Shown piece after piece: positions 3,606 to 64,000 of a stretch of 64,000 nucleotides of DNA. The DNA is from Eledone cirrhosa. Lineage: Eukaryota. Below the pieces are notes generated by a model. The model searched no databases. It was not told where the DNA came from and saw only the letters and a list, made by a program, of their open reading frames with translations. The first letter of the stretch is position 1. Every line of letters begins with the position of its first letter. The stretch is taken from contig CAXHJY010000715.1 of the NCBI GenBank assembly GCA_964016885.1, positions 1 to 64,000 on the forward strand, read 5' to 3'. Made by a program: the position numbers and the translations under genes.

Positions 3606-3680
3606 CTGCGTTTCTGATGAAAACTTATAGAATAATCGTTGTATAACGTACCTTCAGTACCTTCGAAATGTGCATAACAG
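3606..3680 (+). ncRNA. Degenerate Penelope-type hammerhead motif
   Basis: CTGATGA at 3614-3620, GAAA at 3665-3668, near-palindromic tgtgca then TA. Stems I and II pair weakly. Confidence 0.4.
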
Positions 3681-9272: not shown

Positions 9273-9275
<3 letters not shown>

Positions 9276-9462
9276 ATCAAAAGATGGTTAAATGAGTTCC
9301 ATATGTTGATTTAAAACTGCACTATCCACAAGTATTTTTAACCTTCATATCATGTCTTCCTATTTTATCTGATGAAAACACAAATGTTATTGCATGATGA
9401 TATTTGTTTTTGAAATGCGCATAATAAAATACATGGAACTCATTTAACCATCTTTTGATCTT
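9273..9462 (+). mobile_element. Solo Penelope terminal fragment (same family as 61410-63615) with 30-bp inverted copy of its own 3' terminus
   Basis: 9300-9462 is near-identical to the reverse complement of 61410-61572. 9273-9302 is the reverse complement of 9433-9462. TA repeats on the flanks. Confidence 0.9.
9361..9431 (+). ncRNA. Type I hammerhead ribozyme, intact core, palindromic minimal stem III
   Basis: tattttat-CTGATGA-aaacacaaatgttattgcatgatgatatttgttttt-GAAA-tgcgca-TA-ataaaata; 8-bp stem I. Confidence 0.85.
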
Positions 9463-9554
9463 ATATATTATGTATACTCCAGTCCTACAAACTGTAGAGT
9501 GCTTCTTATCCGATATCTGCATTGCTTTATTGTACTACAATAAAACTCACCTCC

Positions 9555-38906: not shown

Positions 38907-38962
38907 ACTGCCTGATGAGGTCATGGCCATTCAATGGCTATCATCGAAATATATATAGCAGT
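38907..38962 (+). ncRNA. Type I hammerhead ribozyme, intact core, in pLTR-like remnant 38835-39008
   Basis: actgc-CTGATGA-ggtcatggccattcaatggctatcatc-GAAA-tatata-TA-gcagt, then AATAAA; (TA)n on both sides. Confidence 0.85.
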
Positions 38963-47340: not shown

Positions 47341-48229
47341 TCTATATATATAAAACTGTGGTTGTCTGTCTGTCTATCGATTTTTGGCACACATCTCCTC
47401 TTAGAATCTCTCACGGAATTGCACCGAAATTGCTATACTTGTACATTGAGCCCTAGCGAAGACATCGGAAAAAAAAAATTTCAAATTGACCCACCCTATG
47501 TGACGAAATCGAATATAATGTATCGATTTTTGAGCGTAAGTTATCAGTTATTTCCCTTTGTTCTGTTTACATTGAGCGTCTTACGTAAAAAATTACGCTA
47601 GCTTTCTCAGCGTTTAAAATGACATTAACACAATACACGAAGCTTCCGTTTTGCTTCATTTCCATTTAAAAGCATTTTAAAACAATATTTTTACTTGAAA
47701 ACAAGTCTATTTAAAGACTACGTAAAACAAGCAAATATTTCGTCGTTAGGCGTGCAGACAGACAGTCGTGCAGACAGATAGTCGTGCAGAGAGGTGATAT
47801 ACGCGTGCAGACAGATAGTCGTGCAGAGAGGTGATATAGGCGTGCAGACAGACAGTCGTGCAGAGAGGTGATATAGGCGTGCAGACAGTCGTGCAGAGAG
47901 GTGATATAGGCGTGCAGACAGACATAACTGATAATTTGGTTACGCTAATGTTTTTCTCTGCGTTGCAGTGTTTACATTTTCGATCTTTGTTAATAAATAA
48001 CCAGTGCAGTTTCTATCCCCAGCATCCTCTTTTGTTATAACATTCGGGTTATCGTTATGTTTTCTTAACTTCATAAGGCATATTGTTGGTTGAGGGAATA
48101 TTAATCAAAAACACCACATGCAAGTCTGCACAGTAGACACTACAGTTTTTAAGCCAAGAAAGAAACTTAACATTGTAACTTTAACACAGCTACTGAGCGA
48201 CCCCGAGCAACGCCGGGCTTTACTGCTAG
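47341..48229 (+). mobile_element. Non-autonomous Helitron, copy 1
   Basis: Starts TC after A, (GTCT)n near the 5' end, subterminal hairpin cccg..cggg, ends CTAG; internal 36-bp minisatellite. Confidence 0.85.
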
Positions 48230-49241
48230 TCTATATATATAAAACTGAGGTTGTCTGTCTGTCTATCGATTTTTGGCACACATCTCCTCTTAGAATCTCT
48301 CACGGAATTGCACCGAAATTGCTATACTTGTACATTGAGCCCTAGCGAAGACATCGGAAAAATAACATTTCAAATTGACCCGCCCTATCTGACGAAATCG
48401 AATATAATGTATCGATTTTTGAGCGTAAGTGATCAGTTATTTCCCTTTGTTCTGTTTACATTCAGCGTAGCGTCTTACGTTCTCTTTACATTCCTGCAAA
48501 ATTCATCAGTTCGAACACTAAGCTTCCGTTTTGCTTCATTTCCATTTAAAAGCCTTTTAAAACAATATTTTTACTTGAAAACAAGTCTATTTAAAGACTA
48601 CGTAAAACAAGCAAATATTTCGTAAAAAAAAGCAAAAATTATATAAGTTTATTTAAAATATATGTATCTGTAAATTTTGTTAGGCGTGCAGACAGACAGT
48701 CGTGCAGACAGACAGTCGTGCAGAGAGGTGATATAAGCGTGCAGACAGACAGTCGTGCAGAGAGGTGATATAGGCGTGCAGACAGACAGTCGTGCAGAGA
48801 GGTGATATAGGCGTGCAGACAGACAGTCGTGCAGAGAGTTGATATAGGCGTGCAGACAGATAGTCGTGCAGAGAGGTGATATAGGCGTGCAGACAGACAG
48901 TCGTGCAGAGAGGTGATATAGGCGTGCAGACAGACATAACTGATAATTTGGTTACGCTAATGTTTTTCTCTGCGTTGCAGTGTTTACATTTTCGATCTTT
49001 GTTAATAAATAACCAGTGCAGTTTTTATCCCCAGCATCCTCTTTTGTTATAACATTCGGGTTATCGTTATGTTTTCTTAACTTCATAAGGCATATTGTTG
49101 GTTGAGGGAATATTAATCAAAAACACCACATGCAAGTCTGCACAGTAGACACTACAGTTTTTAAGCCAAAAAAGAAACTTAACATTGTAACTTTAACACA
49201 GCTACTGAGCGACCCCGAGCAACGCCGGGCTTTACTGCTAG
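48230..49241 (+). mobile_element. Non-autonomous Helitron, copy 2 (head-to-tail with copy 1)
   Basis: Junction CTAG|TC at 48229/48230; ends CTAG followed by T. Confidence 0.85.
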
Positions 49242-49292
<51 letters not shown>

Positions 49293-50010: not shown

Positions 50011-51928
50011 ATGAACGCTGCGTCCAACGATAATGGTGGTGGAGAGGCGGTAAGACTACAAAGCTCGCAGTCAACAACGTCTTCTTCACTAGATACTATA
50101 GAGATGGAAAGACAAAATGAAAATAAAAAAACGAATTCACATCCAAACAACACAAATGACACCAAACAGCTCAATGACAACAAAAATAACAGCAAAACCA
50201 ATAATGATGATAAAAGCAACAATGATAACAACAACAAAGAAAAAAATAAAGACAACGCCAATAACACCAGCATCAAAGACAACAACAACACCAAGGAAAA
50301 TACGGATGATACCAACATCGGTGACAACAAGAATAACAACAACAATAACAACAATAATGACAACACCACCAATACGGATTCCACAAAGAAACCAAAAATC
50401 TCCTTTGCGGAGAAAGTTCAAAAGAAAGAACAATTGATATATCTCGACATAACAAATGCTGAACACCTTTTAAAGGACGCTAAGAGATATGTCACCTTCG
50501 AAAAAAAATGGTGCTTTCAGCATCAATTCTCCGGTAGAAATTCGCAAGGAAACTGCTCTCAAAACGATAGTTTTTAGGACAGTTTCCAATTCTACCCGAA
50601 AACCAGTCCAATTGTCACAGAAAGATATTGAACTGGTTTTCAAAGATTCAATGAATGATATTGCATTCATTCAAAGAAGCAAACTTTTTGGGAGTATTTC
50701 GGTACTGATGAAGGATCAATTGACGGCTCAAAATTACTCTGTGTCGCCAATTGTATCCAACCTGTACACCTTTTTCCCTACATACATGGGAAAAAGGACA
50801 CAAAAGATCAGAATCACAAGTGTCACACCAAAGGTGAACATATGGTGGATACTGTGCGGCTTCATCAATTTTGATGAAGACAGAATACTGTCAGTAGGCA
50901 AGTCCCCCAGAGATGTATTCAATGGGACTAGCATTGAAGTTCTGGTGCAAATGAGCCCAGAGCGAATAGCTATGATCCCACAGCGTGTACTCCTGGACGG
51001 ACTTACCTACATAAACCTTTCGGTTGAGGGTAGGCGGCCTTCATGTTACCATTGCTTTAGCAGGGGTCACCTGAGGGCTTCCTGTCCTAAACTAATGAAC
51101 CAAAAAAAGGCTCTTCTGCCGACACCCATCAAAACAACACAACCACCAACACCACCACTACAACAACAACACCAACACACAAAAATAACCACAACAAACA
51201 CAGTCCCACCCAACCTCACTCCACCTAAAACCACTGCAAAATCACATACAGACACAACAGCTCCCCAAGACATACCCCTCCCCAATCACACAGACGATAC
51301 AACAGATGAGGCTATCTCGCCATCACCCAGTGAAGACGAGGGAGAACCCCATCGCTCGAAAAGAAAGAAAAGACATCACAAAAGCAAAAAACCAGCAAAC
51401 ACTACCACAAACATACAACCACCAACACAAACAACAAAAATATCACAAACAAAACCCCCACCTCCTGAAAACAAAATACCTACAACAAAACGAAAGCACA
51501 CACAAGAACTACAGACAAAAACAAACACAACACAAGAAAATTACACTTACACTTACATAAACACTGAAAACAAAACACTAATGGAGACCATTACGAACGA
51601 CCCTTCGGTTTTCACCGAAGGGAAAACTTTCGCCCACTCTATAAAAAATAGCAAAAAAATGAACCTAAAACTGATTAGGGTCCCTATACAAACTTATAGG
51701 TCCCTAAAAGAAACATTTGAGAAGGATGTGGGGAATTCCTGCGTGAAACCACTCAACCGCGTCCTTCTCAAATGCCTCCCCACCCCAGACACCCCCATCC
51801 CACCAGACCCCACCCCACCAAACATCTGCGTCCCCACCCCGCCGGAAACCACCACCCATCCAGACAACCCCTCCAACACCCCCATGGAAATCGTGCGGCC
51901 TGGTCCCCAGGAGGCGAAGGGTGAGTGA
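50011..51928 (+). CDS. Tx1 ORF1 (zinc knuckle CYHCFSRGHLRASC), split by one extra A in the A8 run at 50501-50508
   Basis: ORFs 50011-50577 and 50489-51928 join as ...VTFEKNGAF... if one A is removed; SFAEKV motif near the N-terminus. Confidence 0.75.
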
Positions 51929-51961
51929 TCTCTTTTCTTCTTTTAACTTTTCAGCACCAAC

Positions 51962-54900
51962 ATGGCCAATATAAGAGTTGGATGTGTGAACGTACGCGGC
52001 CTGGGGATGCCCTGGAAACAGGGCAAACTCTTAAACGACCTCAGGTCGCACAGTTTGGATGTGGTAGCCATTTGCGAGTCCAGGATCCACGGCGAGCGAC
52101 AGCTGGCCCCCATCTTCGATGACTTTGAGATCTACGCATCTCTCTGTCAACCGGGGGGTGGGGGCGGTGTTGCCGTTTTGCTGCGGAAACACCTGGGCCT
52201 CGTAACACAGACGGTTCATCTGGACCCGGAGGGTCGACTGGTGGTCCTAGACGTTGACGGTAGTGAAGGTGGAGCGTTCAGGCTGGTGGCCGCATATGCC
52301 CCATCCGGGACACCGCGGCCAGACTTCTTCAAACGTCTAGAGACTTTTCTGGGAACGTCCCGCTCCTTGCTTTTAGTGGGGGACTGGAATGGAATCCTAG
52401 ATGCACGTTGGGACTATGTGGGAGCATGTCCCGATAAAGGGGGGTGTAACAGCCTCAAACAGTTAATCGACCGATTTGACCTGGCCGATAGATATCGACT
52501 AGATTTTCCGACTGCGCCACTGTGGACGTGGAGTAATCGTAGCGGAACATCTAGATCGTACCTAGATAGGGTTCTAGTTAGAAATAAGGATAGGGACATG
52601 TTAAGCTGTCCACAAATGTTCATGGTTGCCTATTCAGATCACAAACTAGTGACCTGCATGGCCAACCTTGATAGAACCCATAGACAAGGACCCGGCTACT
52701 GGAAGCTGAACTTGTCGTTACCGACAAGCAAAGCCTACAGTAGACGGATTAGCACTTTAGTTAAACAGCACTTGACAGGGGCCATTGTCAACAACAGATG
52801 GTGGTACTCTCTCAAGAGGGCAGTTAGATTAGACTCGATAGTTTTTAGTAAAGAATTAGCGTTAGATAGAAATAGAACCGAGAAGGAACTGGTAGATAAA
52901 GTAGAAGAGGCTATTAGAAGTGGCAACGTAGCCAGCGTGCTAGCAACGAGAACGGCCTTGGACCAGTTCTTCGACGCAAAGCACGAGGGCTGCGTTGTCA
53001 GAAGCAAAATACGTGCTCTGGGAAACGAGGGAGCCAAAGCTGTTAGCTGGGCCCGAGTGACGGAGGCAAAAAGTGGCAACAAGTCCACGATTCGGTCTTT
53101 GAAGGACCAAAACGGACGCGTGATACGTGAGCCGAAGCAGATGTGTGCGGCTTTTCAGCGGCACTTTGCTCGGCTGTTCGGGGGGAGCGGCGCGCCGGGA
53201 GAGGCTATGGATTTCGGTCCATACCTCGACGGCCTACCGCGACTCTCGGACAGCGAGGCGAAGTTCTGCGAAAAGCCGATTTCAGCCACTGAGATAGGGG
53301 ACGCGCTGAGCCAATGCGGCAAACGCAAATCTCCAGGTCTCGACGGTCTACCCTACGAATTTTACGTAGCAATGCCGGACTTATTCTCCGGTCTCCTGGA
53401 AGCGGTCTACTGCAACTGGCAACAGAACGGGAGAATTCCCAGTTCTGTAACCGGGGGCGTGGTCACACTAATCAGGAAGGACGAGAATAAGGGGGATGAC
53501 ATAGGCAACTTCCGGCCCATAACTCTGCTAAACACAGAGTTACAGATTTTGGCCAAGGTGTTGGCAAAGAGGCTGGCGCTTGTCGTCGAGAACCTGGTGG
53601 GAGAAGCGCAGACATGCGCGATCCCGACCAGGTCCATACACGACAACCTCCACCTCATGCGATACATCATAGAGAGGGTAGGGTGTAAACCCGGCTTCGG
53701 TGGGGCCCTGATCAACTTGGATCAGTCTAAGGCTTTCGATAGGGTTGACCATCGTTACCTGGATGCGGTGCTCGAGGCGGCAGGCTTCGGACCCGTGTTC
53801 AGGAGCTGGATTGCTGCAATGCACAACAGCAACATCTGCTCAAGGGTCAAGGTGAACGGTTACCTCTCGGAGCCGTTCCATATTACGCGATCCATTCGAC
53901 AGGGATGCCCTCTCTCCTCCCTTCTGTACGTACTGACTCTCGAGCCACTACTGCGGAAGCTGGAGCTATTGCAGGGCATCCCTCTGGAACCGGGACTGCG
54001 GAAAGCGGCGTCGGCCTACGCCGACGACGTGACAGTAATGGTGTCGAGCGCCTCGCAAATCGAGGAAGTCGGCACCTTACTAAAGGAATACGAAAGTCTC
54101 ACAGGAGCGAAGCTGAACCGGGACAAGTCCATCGGTTTGCAACTCGGATCGTGGAGAGGCAGACCGATGCCTTCCGATGGCGTCGTCGGACGCTGGACGG
54201 AAGGACCGGTAAAGCTGCTCGGGGTCTGGTTTGGTCCGGACCTCCAGGTGGAGAAGAACTGGAACGAAGTGACGGCCAAGGTGTTTGCACTCACCCAGAA
54301 GTGGGCCGAGTGCAAACTATCCTTGAAAGGTCGAGCGGAGGTGGCGAACACTTTTATAGCGTCCGCCATCTACTACCGCTTGACCGTCGTGCCTTGTCCA
54401 GCCAAAACGCTCGCCAAAATGGAGCGCGCCCTCTTCCGATTCCTTTGGAAGAGGCGGGCTCCTTTGGTAAGAAGATCCATCTGCTGCCAACACCCTTCTA
54501 ACGGAGGGCTGGGGATGCCGTGGTTGACGATGCGCAAACACGCGCTCAGGCTGCGGCATCTCTACGTATTCCTCACCGGACAACCGGTGTGGGCCCCGTT
54601 CGTGAGGCGAGCCTTCCCACGACTCGTCTCGCTGACCGAGCTGCAGTCCTGGGTCAAGCAGAGACCGAGGAAAATGGGCGACTGGCACATCGAATGTGCT
54701 CAGGCGCTCACAGCCCTCTGGCAGGCGGACCCGGCGATCAGTGGAGACTCCACTTCGTCATTCTATAGAGGGTTGGTCCGCAGCAAGTGCGACGACGCGC
54801 TCGGTGAAACTCTAGGCGTGGAGGAAGATGAACTGGCCAGTCTGTTCGGTAGGACCTTCCGCCCGGGACCGATGGACAACTTCCAAAAGTCCCTGGCCTG

Positions 54901-55399
54901 GCAGTGCTACCGAGGAGCTCTACCAGTTCGAGACAAGCTCTACAGACATGGGCGCCCGGGCAGGGACCCTGCAAAAAAGATCTGTCCGAGGTGCGTGCGA
55001 GACGAAGAAACCGTCGCGCACGCATTCATACACTGCCCGGGCGTCACTGACCTGTGGGGCTATGTAGAACGACTATTGTCGCGGGTGGGACCAATCCGGT
55101 TGACCACCGAGTCCATTGTCATGATCAAACCGCCACCCTCCTTCAAAAACGAAGGAGAGGCGGTTTTCCTTTGTGTGATAGCTATGGCGAAAGAGGTTGT
55201 ATGGTGGACAAGGTTGAAAGGGCTGAGGTCAGACACCTTTCTCTCCGGCCAACAACTGATTCTTTTTTTCAAATACCACTTTGGAAGAAGAATCAGGATG
55301 GAGAGAGAGGTGCTGTACCCCAGCAAGTTTTATGAAAGGTGGGTGAAAGTGGCGAGAATGGCCCGAGTGAATGGGCCTTCTCTCTATATCAGCCTGTAG
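51962..55399 (+). CDS. Tx1 ORF2: APE endonuclease + reverse transcriptase + CCHC, 1145 aa, uninterrupted
   Basis: NVRGL, GDWN, SYLDRV, SDH (APE); KSPGLDG, FRPITLLN, LDQSKAFDRVDH, RQGCPLS, YADD (RT); CPRC...HAFIHC. Confidence 0.95.
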   Translation: MANIRVGCVNVRGLGMPWKQGKLLNDLRSHSLDVVAICESRIHGERQLAPIFDDFEIYASLCQPGGGGGVAVLLRKHLGLVTQTVHLDPEGRLVVLDVDGSEGGAFRLVAAYAPSGTPRPDFFKRLETFLGTSRSLLLVGDWNGILDARWDYVGACPDKGGCNSLKQLIDRFDLADRYRLDFPTAPLWTWSNRSGTSRSYLDRVLVRNKDRDMLSCPQMFMVAYSDHKLVTCMANLDRTHRQGPGYWKLNLSLPTSKAYSRRISTLVKQHLTGAIVNNRWWYSLKRAVRLDSIVFSKELALDRNRTEKELVDKVEEAIRSGNVASVLATRTALDQFFDAKHEGCVVRSKIRALGNEGAKAVSWARVTEAKSGNKSTIRSLKDQNGRVIREPKQMCAAFQRHFARLFGGSGAPGEAMDFGPYLDGLPRLSDSEAKFCEKPISATEIGDALSQCGKRKSPGLDGLPYEFYVAMPDLFSGLLEAVYCNWQQNGRIPSSVTGGVVTLIRKDENKGDDIGNFRPITLLNTELQILAKVLAKRLALVVENLVGEAQTCAIPTRSIHDNLHLMRYIIERVGCKPGFGGALINLDQSKAFDRVDHRYLDAVLEAAGFGPVFRSWIAAMHNSNICSRVKVNGYLSEPFHITRSIRQGCPLSSLLYVLTLEPLLRKLELLQGIPLEPGLRKAASAYADDVTVMVSSASQIEEVGTLLKEYESLTGAKLNRDKSIGLQLGSWRGRPMPSDGVVGRWTEGPVKLLGVWFGPDLQVEKNWNEVTAKVFALTQKWAECKLSLKGRAEVANTFIASAIYYRLTVVPCPAKTLAKMERALFRFLWKRRAPLVRRSICCQHPSNGGLGMPWLTMRKHALRLRHLYVFLTGQPVWAPFVRRAFPRLVSLTELQSWVKQRPRKMGDWHIECAQALTALWQADPAISGDSTSSFYRGLVRSKCDDALGETLGVEEDELASLFGRTFRPGPMDNFQKSLAWQCYRGALPVRDKLYRHGRPGRDPAKKICPRCVRDEETVAHAFIHCPGVTDLWGYVERLLSRVGPIRLTTESIVMIKPPPSFKNEGEAVFLCVIAMAKEVVWWTRLKGLRSDTFLSGQQLILFFKYHFGRRIRMEREVLYPSKFYERWVKVARMARVNGPSLYISL

Positions 55400-61312: not shown

Positions 61313-61409
<97 letters not shown>

Positions 61410-61410
<1 letters not shown>

Positions 61411-62368
61411 AGATCAAAAGATGGTTAAAAGAGTTCCATGTATTTTATTATGCGCATTTCAAAAACAAATATCATCATGCAATAACATTTGTGTTTTCAT
61501 CAGATAAAATAGGAAGACATGATATGAAGGTTAAAAACACTTGTGGATAGTGCAGTTTTAAATCAACATATGAAAAGTAGTTTTAGATTGATGTGTGATA
61601 TTGGGAAAAAAAATGTTGAGGGGGGTGGGGGTGGAAAGGATGAAAAAGAGGAGGATATGAGAGTAAAAAGTGGAGGGGGAGGAGTATAATGAGGAAGGAT
61701 GAGATAGGAGGAGAGATGAGTGATAGAGAGAGAGAGATAGCTTTTATAACTGAGAAAAATATATTGTTTTACATAGAGAGGTTGAAAAACCGTTGGAAGA
61801 TAATGTATAAATTAAAAGAATTTGAAAATTAACGAAGAGAAAAATAATGTAAAGTTAAGGTTTGTATATTGAAGGGTTTAATAATATGTGCGATGGAAAG
61901 AAAATGTTAATATGTATTAAGAATAATATTTAAGGGTTTAATAATATGTGCGATGGAAAGAAAATGTGGATATTTATTATTAAAAATAGCAAAGGTAATG
62001 TAAGTAAGGATATATTGTGAAAAAAGTAGAAGATGGGATGAAATAGTTAGATGAGCATGAAAGTGAGAAAAAAATAATGAATTGAGGATGAATAATCTAA
62101 AGTCAAAAAAATTTTTATGTTTACGAAGGATTTTTTCAAGGTGATATAAAGTAATAATATATTGTATTGTGTAATAATTGTTTCTATGTTAGGCACAGTG
62201 AGAAAAGGTACAGATTAGGGGTTAGAAATTAAAAGAAAAAGAAAGGAAAAGGAAAAGGAAGAAAGGGAAGTGATAAATAGGAGTGATATAGAATGAGTAA
62301 CAAGTATTATATAATGTATAATAAATAACTTTGAAATAAGGTAGAAAGATGGGTATATTTTTAAAGAA

Positions 62369-62409
<41 letters not shown>

Positions 62410-63615
62410 CCTTTGAGAAAAGGATTCTAAATTGATAAAGTATTGGATATTAGCTGTATACTTTATGGAATGTTCTGTGGAATTTATGCAAGCAGAGAGA
62501 AAACAAGTCAGTGCGTCTATTTATTATAGAATCTAAATTAGATATAATGGTAAATTTTTCATTTAGACAAAGATTGCAAGTCTTGGATAGAGAACTGTTC
62601 AAGTTTGAAGAAGCAGAAGAAACCTTTTTCCAAGAGATGTTATATTTAATATTTTTGTCTTTCAAGGACCATATGAGTTCTGAGAGAGCCGTGTTGGTTC
62701 TTTTAAGTTGGTATTTAAAAGACGAATGATGATTATAAATACGAGCTTTAAAAGAGGTGGAAGTGGAGCCAAAATAGGTGAAGGAATTGGTGTCAGTTAT
62801 AACTTTACATTCGTAGATTAAGTTTTTATCAAGACAATGGTTGTTGAGAGGACATTTATTTTTAACATGGCAATTGCAATTGCGATTAGAGAGATTATTA
62901 ACGAGTGACCTAGTGTTATCTATAGAAGGAATTGGATTGGAGAAGTTATTTGCGATAGGAATAATAGTTTCTTGATTTAGAATGGGATTAAGAACATTTA
63001 GCGAAGTTATGTTTGACGTGGTATTTGGGTTTGCAGAAATTAGCCTAGGGTTTACAATGACGTCGGGAGTACTATTACTATTATTATGATATTCAGTGTT
63101 GGAAGGAAGAGATTTAGTATTTAGTATTTTATTGTTGTGTTTAGAGATAATGTTGGAAATGCTGGAGGATGTCGAATAGGAAAATTTTATAGTGTGTTTG
63201 TTAAATATTTTACTATAGATATGTGAGGGAGGGAAGCATTTATTTAAGGCACTAAAGAATAATTTAGGAATATTATTATTAATAGAGATGGAGAAAGGAG
63301 CATTATACCAGATTATGTTTTTGTATCTAGGTCTTTTATTAAAGTTATTGGAATGATCATGATTAATTATTCTACTGTAAGATCTTCTAGAATTTGTTTC
63401 TTTACTATATTTGATTTTATCAGGATAGCCGGCTTTAGAAAGCGCGTTATTATAGTAATTGGCGTTAGCATCAAAGATGTTTTTATTAGAAGATAGGTTA
63501 GATATTCTTTTTCCAATATTACTAACTATAGCATTCTTAATATTAGTAGGGTGGTTAGATTTAAAATTAACATAATTTAGGTTCTCATTGTTTTTATGGT
63601 AAGGGTAATATAGGC
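61410..63615 (-). mobile_element. Penelope-like element, 5'-truncated (RT thumb, linker, GIY-YIG, ~1-kb 3' UTR, hammerhead)
   Basis: Hand translation: YPYHKNNENLNYVNFKSNHP...IIWYNAPFS...KIFNKHTIKFSYS...CNC..KCPLNNHCLDKNLIYEC..TYFGSTSTSFKARIYNH..CNLCLNEK..IINRRTDL; the 3' end abuts (TA)n. Confidence 0.9.
61441..61511 (-). ncRNA. Type I hammerhead ribozyme at the 3' end of the Penelope element
   Basis: Reverse complement of the motif at 9361-9431 (CTGATGA...GAAA tgcgca TA). Confidence 0.85.
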
Positions 63616-63622
63616 TACACAG
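62450..63622 (-). pseudogene. 390-codon stop-free Penelope frame (C-terminal part of the RT-GIY-YIG protein)
   Basis: Codon-by-codon reading shows no stop from 63622 to the TAA at 62450-62452. No ATG/GTG/TTG occurs until 62665, so the track reports only 71 aa. Confidence 0.85.
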
Positions 63623-64000
63623 CTAAGTATTCTATAAGTCTCTAGCTGTGTCATTCTCGATAAAAGCACTGGATATGTAATCCTGAAGATTTCTAATAAG
63701 AATGAAACGCGTAGGTTACTTCCCTTGCTTTTATCGAGAATCTAATTGTCATACGTGACGTATTCTATTCTATAGCGATTAGGTCTTCAAAATGTTTATT
63801 ATAAACATACAGAATATTTTCGAATATTCTATGTCTATCTTCACATATATATCGCTATTTCAAAGCATTTAATCCAATTTCTAATTTCTGCCGGACCGGC
63901 AACCGCTCTTTCAAACCAGTTCCTGTACACAGCTAAGTATTCTATAAGTCTCTAGCTGTGTCATTCTCGATAAAAGCACTGGATATGTAATCCTGAAGAT
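63616..64000 (+). mobile_element. 310-bp tandem unit with hammerhead (candidate non-LTR retrozyme or foreign pLTR); runs off the right edge
   Basis: 63616-63690 is identical to 63926-64000; non-coding; multiple hairpins. Confidence 0.7.
63677..63719 (+). ncRNA. Type I hammerhead ribozyme, intact core
   Basis: gtaatc-CTGAAGA-tttctaataagaat-GAAA-cgcg-TA-ggttac; stem I is extended by a perfect 15-bp pairing 63654-63668/63726-63740. Confidence 0.85.

Follow-up and report, generated by a model that had tools for sequence, protein, structure and literature searches.

At the right-hand end of the window (the whole 64,000-nt stretch of Eledone cirrhosa DNA analysed here), a Penelope open reading frame on the minus strand breaks off and a tandem repeat carrying a hammerhead motif begins at the next base on the plus strand. 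The locus raises two questions: what the repeat is, and how it came to be joined to this element. The features concerned are:

61403..62449, minus strand: Penelope 3' non-coding region, ending in (TA)n
61449..61503, minus strand: type I hammerhead belonging to the Penelope element, with a long helix II and a palindromic helix III, unrelated to that of the repeat unit
62450..63615, minus strand: 5'-truncated Penelope ORF of 387 stop-free codons, with RT thumb, Asn-rich linker, CxCX5C and a GIY-YIG-like endonuclease
63615..63616, no strand: Penelope/repeat joint, head-to-head (5' to 5'), blunt as judged by the continuation of Penelope under two other species labels
63616..63925, plus strand: repeat unit 1, 310 nt, 34% GC, hairpin-rich and non-coding
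63926..64000, plus strand: first part of repeat unit 2, 75 nt identical to unit 1; the window ends inside its hammerhead

Metazoan non-LTR retrozymes are described in PMC7229834 as tandem units of 150-450 bp, with Penelope elements proposed as their mobilisers. In the available parts of that paper and of 10.64898/2026.07.22.740005, Penelope is proposed as the mobilising enzyme of animal retrozymes from co-occurrence and sequence kinship alone. Where a retrozyme-type repeat lies head-to-head with a Penelope family to which it is unrelated, the question of the mobiliser becomes testable within one genome, and the joint would also bear on how the inverted insertions of Penelope elements form. A search of the open literature by titles and the beginnings of abstracts found no published case of a retrozyme physically joined to a Penelope element of another family, and a search for literature on retrozymes in cephalopods found none.

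The 310-nt unit and its hammerhead motif

Three further features lie within the first unit:

63617..63651, plus strand: 9-bp hairpin, whose 5' base is one base away from the joint
63653..63741, plus strand: 16-bp helix around the hammerhead, arms 63653-63668 and 63726-63741, all pairs Watson-Crick
63677..63719, plus strand: type I hammerhead motif, helix I 63677-82/63714-19, predicted cut after 63713

The 310-bp period proposed by the first-pass annotation was borne out: 63616-63690 and 63926-64000 are 75 identical bases, and 1.24 copies of the unit lie inside the window. The hairpins that it named were all found (9, 8, 8 and 6 bp), and so was the helix closing the hammerhead, which has 16 consecutive Watson-Crick pairs, one more than the 15 bp claimed. 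The unit was also said to lack an ORF; its longest stop-free runs are indeed only 50 codons on the plus strand and 42 on the minus strand. Comparison of the unit with consensus motifs revealed no convincing boxes of a polymerase III or snRNA promoter. The linear fold of the unit gave z -3.8, with none of 100 shuffles as low. Folding the monomer as a circle, which had been recommended, gave -66.9 kcal/mol (z -4.8, 0 of 200 shuffles), and the minus strand folded as a circle was lower than the plus strand, at -78.1. As a speculative aside, a cDNA stopping at the hairpin at 63617-63651 may fold on itself (-7.6 kcal/mol) and so terminate.

An intact hammerhead with a palindromic CGCG stem III had been reported. 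This stands for the first unit, which has a full type I core (CUGAAGA at 63683-63689, GAAA at 63704-63707, CGCG and UA); the second hammerhead is cut by the window end. Helix I is of 6 bp, helix II is of 4 bp (63691-94/63699-702) on a U.U mismatch, and helix III consists of one pair and the palindromic CGCG tetraloop. When the unit was dinucleotide-shuffled 5000 times, the hammerhead descriptor matched none of the resulting sequences. The Rfam search of the unit returned no hammerhead at the gathering score, nor at E up to 10; the matches obtained in the relaxed search were solely to miRNA models and were driven by microsatellite sequence.

In the ensemble of the monomer circle helix II is paired at 5-7%, and the active-like hammerhead fold lies 3.7 kcal/mol above the lowest-energy fold of the monomer. 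The ACGCGU palindrome of the hammerhead pairs with itself at -7.5 kcal/mol, and palindrome self-pairing of this kind is expected of ribozymes that work as dimers (PMC4209133, available part). These models suggest that the unit ribozyme, being weak in helices II and III, probably needs a dimer for cleavage; whether the predicted ribozyme would cleave itself efficiently is an evenly balanced matter. For comparison, 8 of 9 predicted retrozyme dimers of Xenopus did not cleave in vitro and one did, according to the part available of 10.64898/2026.07.22.740005. In transcripts of the tandem repeat, every unit would be expected to cut itself after 63713, probably by way of ribozyme dimers paired through the ACGCGU palindrome, and the resulting 310-nt monomers would be circularised by a host ligase.

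The repeat family and its identity

Four runs (X1, X4, X5 and X22) of the 24 listed were compared with 62450-63926; X2, X3 and 15 further runs, with shares of 0.20-0.29 and other labels, stood outside this comparison. The head-to-tail joint 63925->63616 was present in all four runs. In X22 it was supported by 2150 reads with 80 starts, the back-joints totalling 2267 reads at a last-bin depth of 2347 (reduced-representation DNA, with possible bias). In X4 and X5, which carry other species labels, the unit appeared as a single 340-nt contig (310 nt plus a 30-nt overlap), here read as a closed loop of the unit. In all, the unit loops back on itself under three species labels. In X1 the back-joint was confined to a few contigs, at depths of 2340 and 644 versus about 585,000. 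The depth of the unit was 6.2-9.6 times that of the Penelope ORF across runs, a ratio that is not a copy number. No exit from the unit into an ORF was seen among the loose ends listed in the runs compared. The listed carriers of the sequence included no RNA runs, which says nothing on expression, and metagenome scans gave no matches.

Among the majority differences listed, four fall inside the hammerhead, all at tolerated sites (63680, 63687, 63697 and 63715), that is, at free positions or where helix I is kept paired; by a rough count the chance of all four doing so is about 1-2%. The minority bases at 63680 and 63687 are common to both units of the window.

Some joints of other kinds were observed in the same runs. 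Two departures from the unit, each in a single X1 contig, were seen: one coincides with the predicted cut site, 63713, and the other leads from 63781 into TA-rich sequence, so that 63781 may be a fixed 3' end. In X22 an opposite-strand joint, 63616/63839, was carried by 96 reads with one start; its break coincides with the joint of the window, and it may stem either from a second locus or from a chimera in the library. The hammerhead core, 63674-63707, was found with other flanks in nine X4 contigs and four X5 contigs, which, as far as their sequences go, are candidates for related ribozyme families and for parents of the unit.

Read from its sequence, the unit forms the left end of a non-coding repeat that is present in high copy, is arranged head-to-tail and carries a type I hammerhead motif; at the DNA level it is very probably a non-LTR retrozyme-type repeat. 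At 310 nt it lies within the range of short tandem units of such repeats (about 150-450 bp), it is non-coding with a GC content below 50%, and its core and helices are those of a type I hammerhead, without a match to an Rfam model. The 3'-end sequence that a pLTR of the adjoining Penelope would share is not found in it: comparison of the unit with Penelope's own 3' region gave a local score of 24, a value that 96 of 200 shuffles attained, in agreement with the earlier statement that the unit is unrelated to that element's hammerhead region. One of six comparisons of the unit with other regions scored 30 (2 of 200 shuffles) and was rejected as a TA-rich stretch outside the hammerhead. Because the family is head-to-tail, loops back on itself and has no ORF exit listed, the unit is assigned to the retrozyme type and not to the terminal repeat of this Penelope element.

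The unit resembles the metazoan non-LTR retrozymes of PMC7229834, in its available text, in size, tandem arrangement, low GC, type I hammerhead, lack of an ORF, self-paired fold and the presence of Penelope elements in the same genome. The class is already known, and the unit is one more family of described retrozyme repeats. Its helix III is like that of the axolotl HHR_Amex1, with one pair and a palindromic tetraloop, and the U.U base of its helix II is like that of HHR_Amex2; compared with the axolotl ribozymes described in the same source, both weak features are here united in one ribozyme.

Retrozymes have been argued to be non-autonomous Penelope derivatives originating from pLTRs (Li, Clavereau and Pollet 2026, bioRxiv 10.64898/2026.07.22.740005). 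The present case is like theirs in its tandem hammerhead units, its suggested Penelope ancestry and its co-occurrence with Penelope. Their argument, in the part available, draws on co-occurrence and on similarity to pLTRs, for the most part in vertebrates, whereas here the unit is unrelated to the terminal region of the adjoining element and is nevertheless joined to it.

It could be asked whether the unit is the pLTR of a second, coding Penelope family of the Hydra type, with the array leading into the ORF of that family. The Hydra-like architecture of its hammerhead, the related cores with other flanks (nine contigs in X4, four in X5) and the resemblance of Xenopus retrozymes to pLTRs (10.64898/2026.07.22.740005, available part) would fit. 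Nearly all X22 reads at the end of the unit go back to its start, however, and X4 and X5 each hold it as one 340-nt contig with no high-depth exit among the matches listed, which makes this explanation very unlikely. Descent from such a family is another matter. Of 25 Hydra-clade families in the available part of PMC8557442 File S2, 14 (counted by eye) share the U.U base of helix II, which is missing from the ribozyme of the neighbouring Penelope; this suggests that the unit descended from another Hydra-type family. This descent is suggested, not proven, because the U.U base also occurs in the axolotl retrozyme HHR_Amex2 (PMC7229834, available part).

The adjoining Penelope element and the joint

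From its sequence, the neighbour fits a Hydra-clade-like Penelope element cut inside the RT, under the clade definition of Craig et al. 2021 (PMC8557442, as far as available). Its C-terminal GIY-YIG-like domain has the CxCX5C linker, CxxC and CxH, and its 3' end has a hammerhead and a (TA)n target. It shares with the Hydra-clade elements of that paper the CxCX5C linker, CxxC, CxH and 3' hammerhead, and likewise the (TA)n target and the 5' truncation with an inverted neighbour; the inverted neighbour is a same-family copy in the available part of PMC8557442 and a different, non-coding repeat here. Neither the unit hammerhead nor the Penelope hammerhead and protein motif was found in the available part of the supplement of Craig et al. 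(PMC8557442).

The Penelope fragment aligns with 17 proteins of about 700 residues, from their PYxK motif on, and its homologues are 29-45% identical to it. RWK is present in 12 of the 17 full-length relatives and DKT in 15 of 17; this region is lost from the truncated copy. Pfam gave no match to the fragment. From PYxK to CxCX5C the linker measures 244 residues, compared with 157-176 in 20 of 28 relatives (those with both motifs); it is Asn-rich and about 70-85 residues longer than in those 20. Approximately at 62880-63160 (minus strand) it is 25% Asn, and Asn-rich inserts are known in Adineta Penelopes (PMC3846280, available part).

The unit had been said to start where the Penelope frame breaks off, on the opposite strand, and this was confirmed to the base: the cut is at 63615 and the start at 63616. 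In X4 and X5, one contig each, Penelope runs on behind 63615, and the hand translation of this continuation is the RT motif that precedes PYxK in the relatives. Since these contigs, from other species, continue Penelope, its cut is placed at 63615 and the unit follows from 63616 without overlap. The joint has no microhomology and only a 3-bp near-palindrome, and a TA-rich run lies 3-9 nt to its left. No reads or contigs across 63615/63616 were seen among the matches listed for the four runs compared. Near-private sites numbered 6 in 1166 in the Penelope ORF and 2 in 310 in the unit, at 63750 and 63863 (Fisher p 0.68; 40 of 252 rows); by this weak test both parts look similarly young.

Origin of the joint

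An internal control for the joint is provided by a second structure of the same Penelope family:

9273..9475, no strand: inverted pair of Penelope 3' ends, same family as the 61.4-kb copy, head-to-head, in (TA)n

At the joint inside this pair the arms overlap by 3 nt and there is a palindrome of 6 nt, which fits the in-cis self-priming model of PMC3846280, as given in the available part. Both arms carry a common variant that is missing from the 61.4-kb copy. Penelope elements usually meet their inverted neighbour 5' to 5' in this way, the neighbour being as a rule a copy of the same family (PMC8557442, available part).

The best reading, to be held tentatively, is that Penelope and the retrozyme repeat were inserted together in one event, because the same Penelope family inserts head-to-head with itself at 9273-9475 and because the two parts appear similarly young. 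Such an event would involve nicks made by the Penelope RT/endonuclease in each strand of a (TA)n target; two cDNAs would be primed, one on the Penelope RNA and one on the repeat RNA, and their incomplete ends would then be joined. This course is plausible because purified Penelope protein, modelled as a dimer, nicks and extends both target strands (PMC11167929, available part). It is conceivable, though with less than even confidence, that the joint is a frozen two-template insertion, in which a single Penelope complex used one target nick to copy its own RNA and the other nick to copy that of an unrelated retrozyme. The co-integration put forward in the first-pass annotation agrees with the geometry of the joint and with the family's own inverted insertion, but it has to contend with a documented secondary insertion in the opposite strand (PMC3846280, available part).

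Several observations speak against co-insertion: no spanning read or contig is among the matches listed, the far end of the array lies beyond 64000, the joint is blunt, unlike the inverted joint of this Penelope family, and the unit and the Penelope 3' region appear from their sequences to have nothing in common. In the available part of PMC3846280, moreover, inverted arms are explained by in-cis self-priming and no cross-mobilisation between families is seen.

The retrozyme array may instead have been inserted later, in opposite orientation, into an existing Penelope element, the rest of the ORF then lying beyond the array. This is rather unlikely, but it has a documented parallel, Pen2a in Pen3 on the opposite strand (PMC3846280, available part). 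The TA-rich run close by on the left could have been the target, and the joint is blunt, without the palindrome of the family's inverted joint. On the other hand, both parts are of similar apparent age (a rough estimate), a young Penelope ORF would be a small target, and the 5' end of the repeat meets the 5' cut of Penelope in the usual inverted geometry (PMC8557442, available part). The reverse order, Penelope landing in a pre-existing array, was rejected because the 3' flank of Penelope contains no repeat sequence.

Two independent insertions united by deletion or rearrangement, or an assembly error at the repeat, would account for the blunt joint and the repeat-dense window, and for the lack of a spanning read among the matches listed, which a joint at a single locus could also escape; with the Penelope frame unbroken up to the joint and both parts young in appearance, this is improbable.

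If the two-template insertion is true, the genome itself would directly attest the mobilisation of animal retrozymes by Penelope elements, and it would follow that inverted insertions of these elements can stem from two different RNAs and not from self-priming. In its available text, PMC7229834 proposes the Penelope mobiliser without showing a joint; here there is a physical joint, with cleavage and circles predicted. The closest parallel is trans-mobilisation by Penelope in Adineta vaga (Arkhipova et al. 2013, PMC3846280), in which unrelated sequence is likewise moved and head-to-head structures are likewise found. The cargo in Adineta vaga is flanked by the element's own pLTRs, according to the available part, whereas the partner here shares no sequence with Penelope.

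Other features observed in the window are:

38912-38957, plus strand: a further hammerhead motif of type I, the third, whose helix III is palindromic, within a short stretch flanked by TA
47748-48239 and 48751-49251: about 500 bases repeated directly at 96% identity, with internal short tandem repeats
50474-55399, plus strand: apparently intact two-ORF LINE, a 484-codon frame and then one of 1150 codons that matches endonuclease, RT and zf-RVT

The motif at 38912-38957 probably belongs to the 3' end of a further Penelope family. Loose matches to the hammerhead descriptor at 3614 (plus) and 48509 (minus) were judged to be due to chance. The direct repeat at 47748-48239/48751-49251 ends in a GC-rich hairpin and CTAG and is a candidate for a Helitron end.
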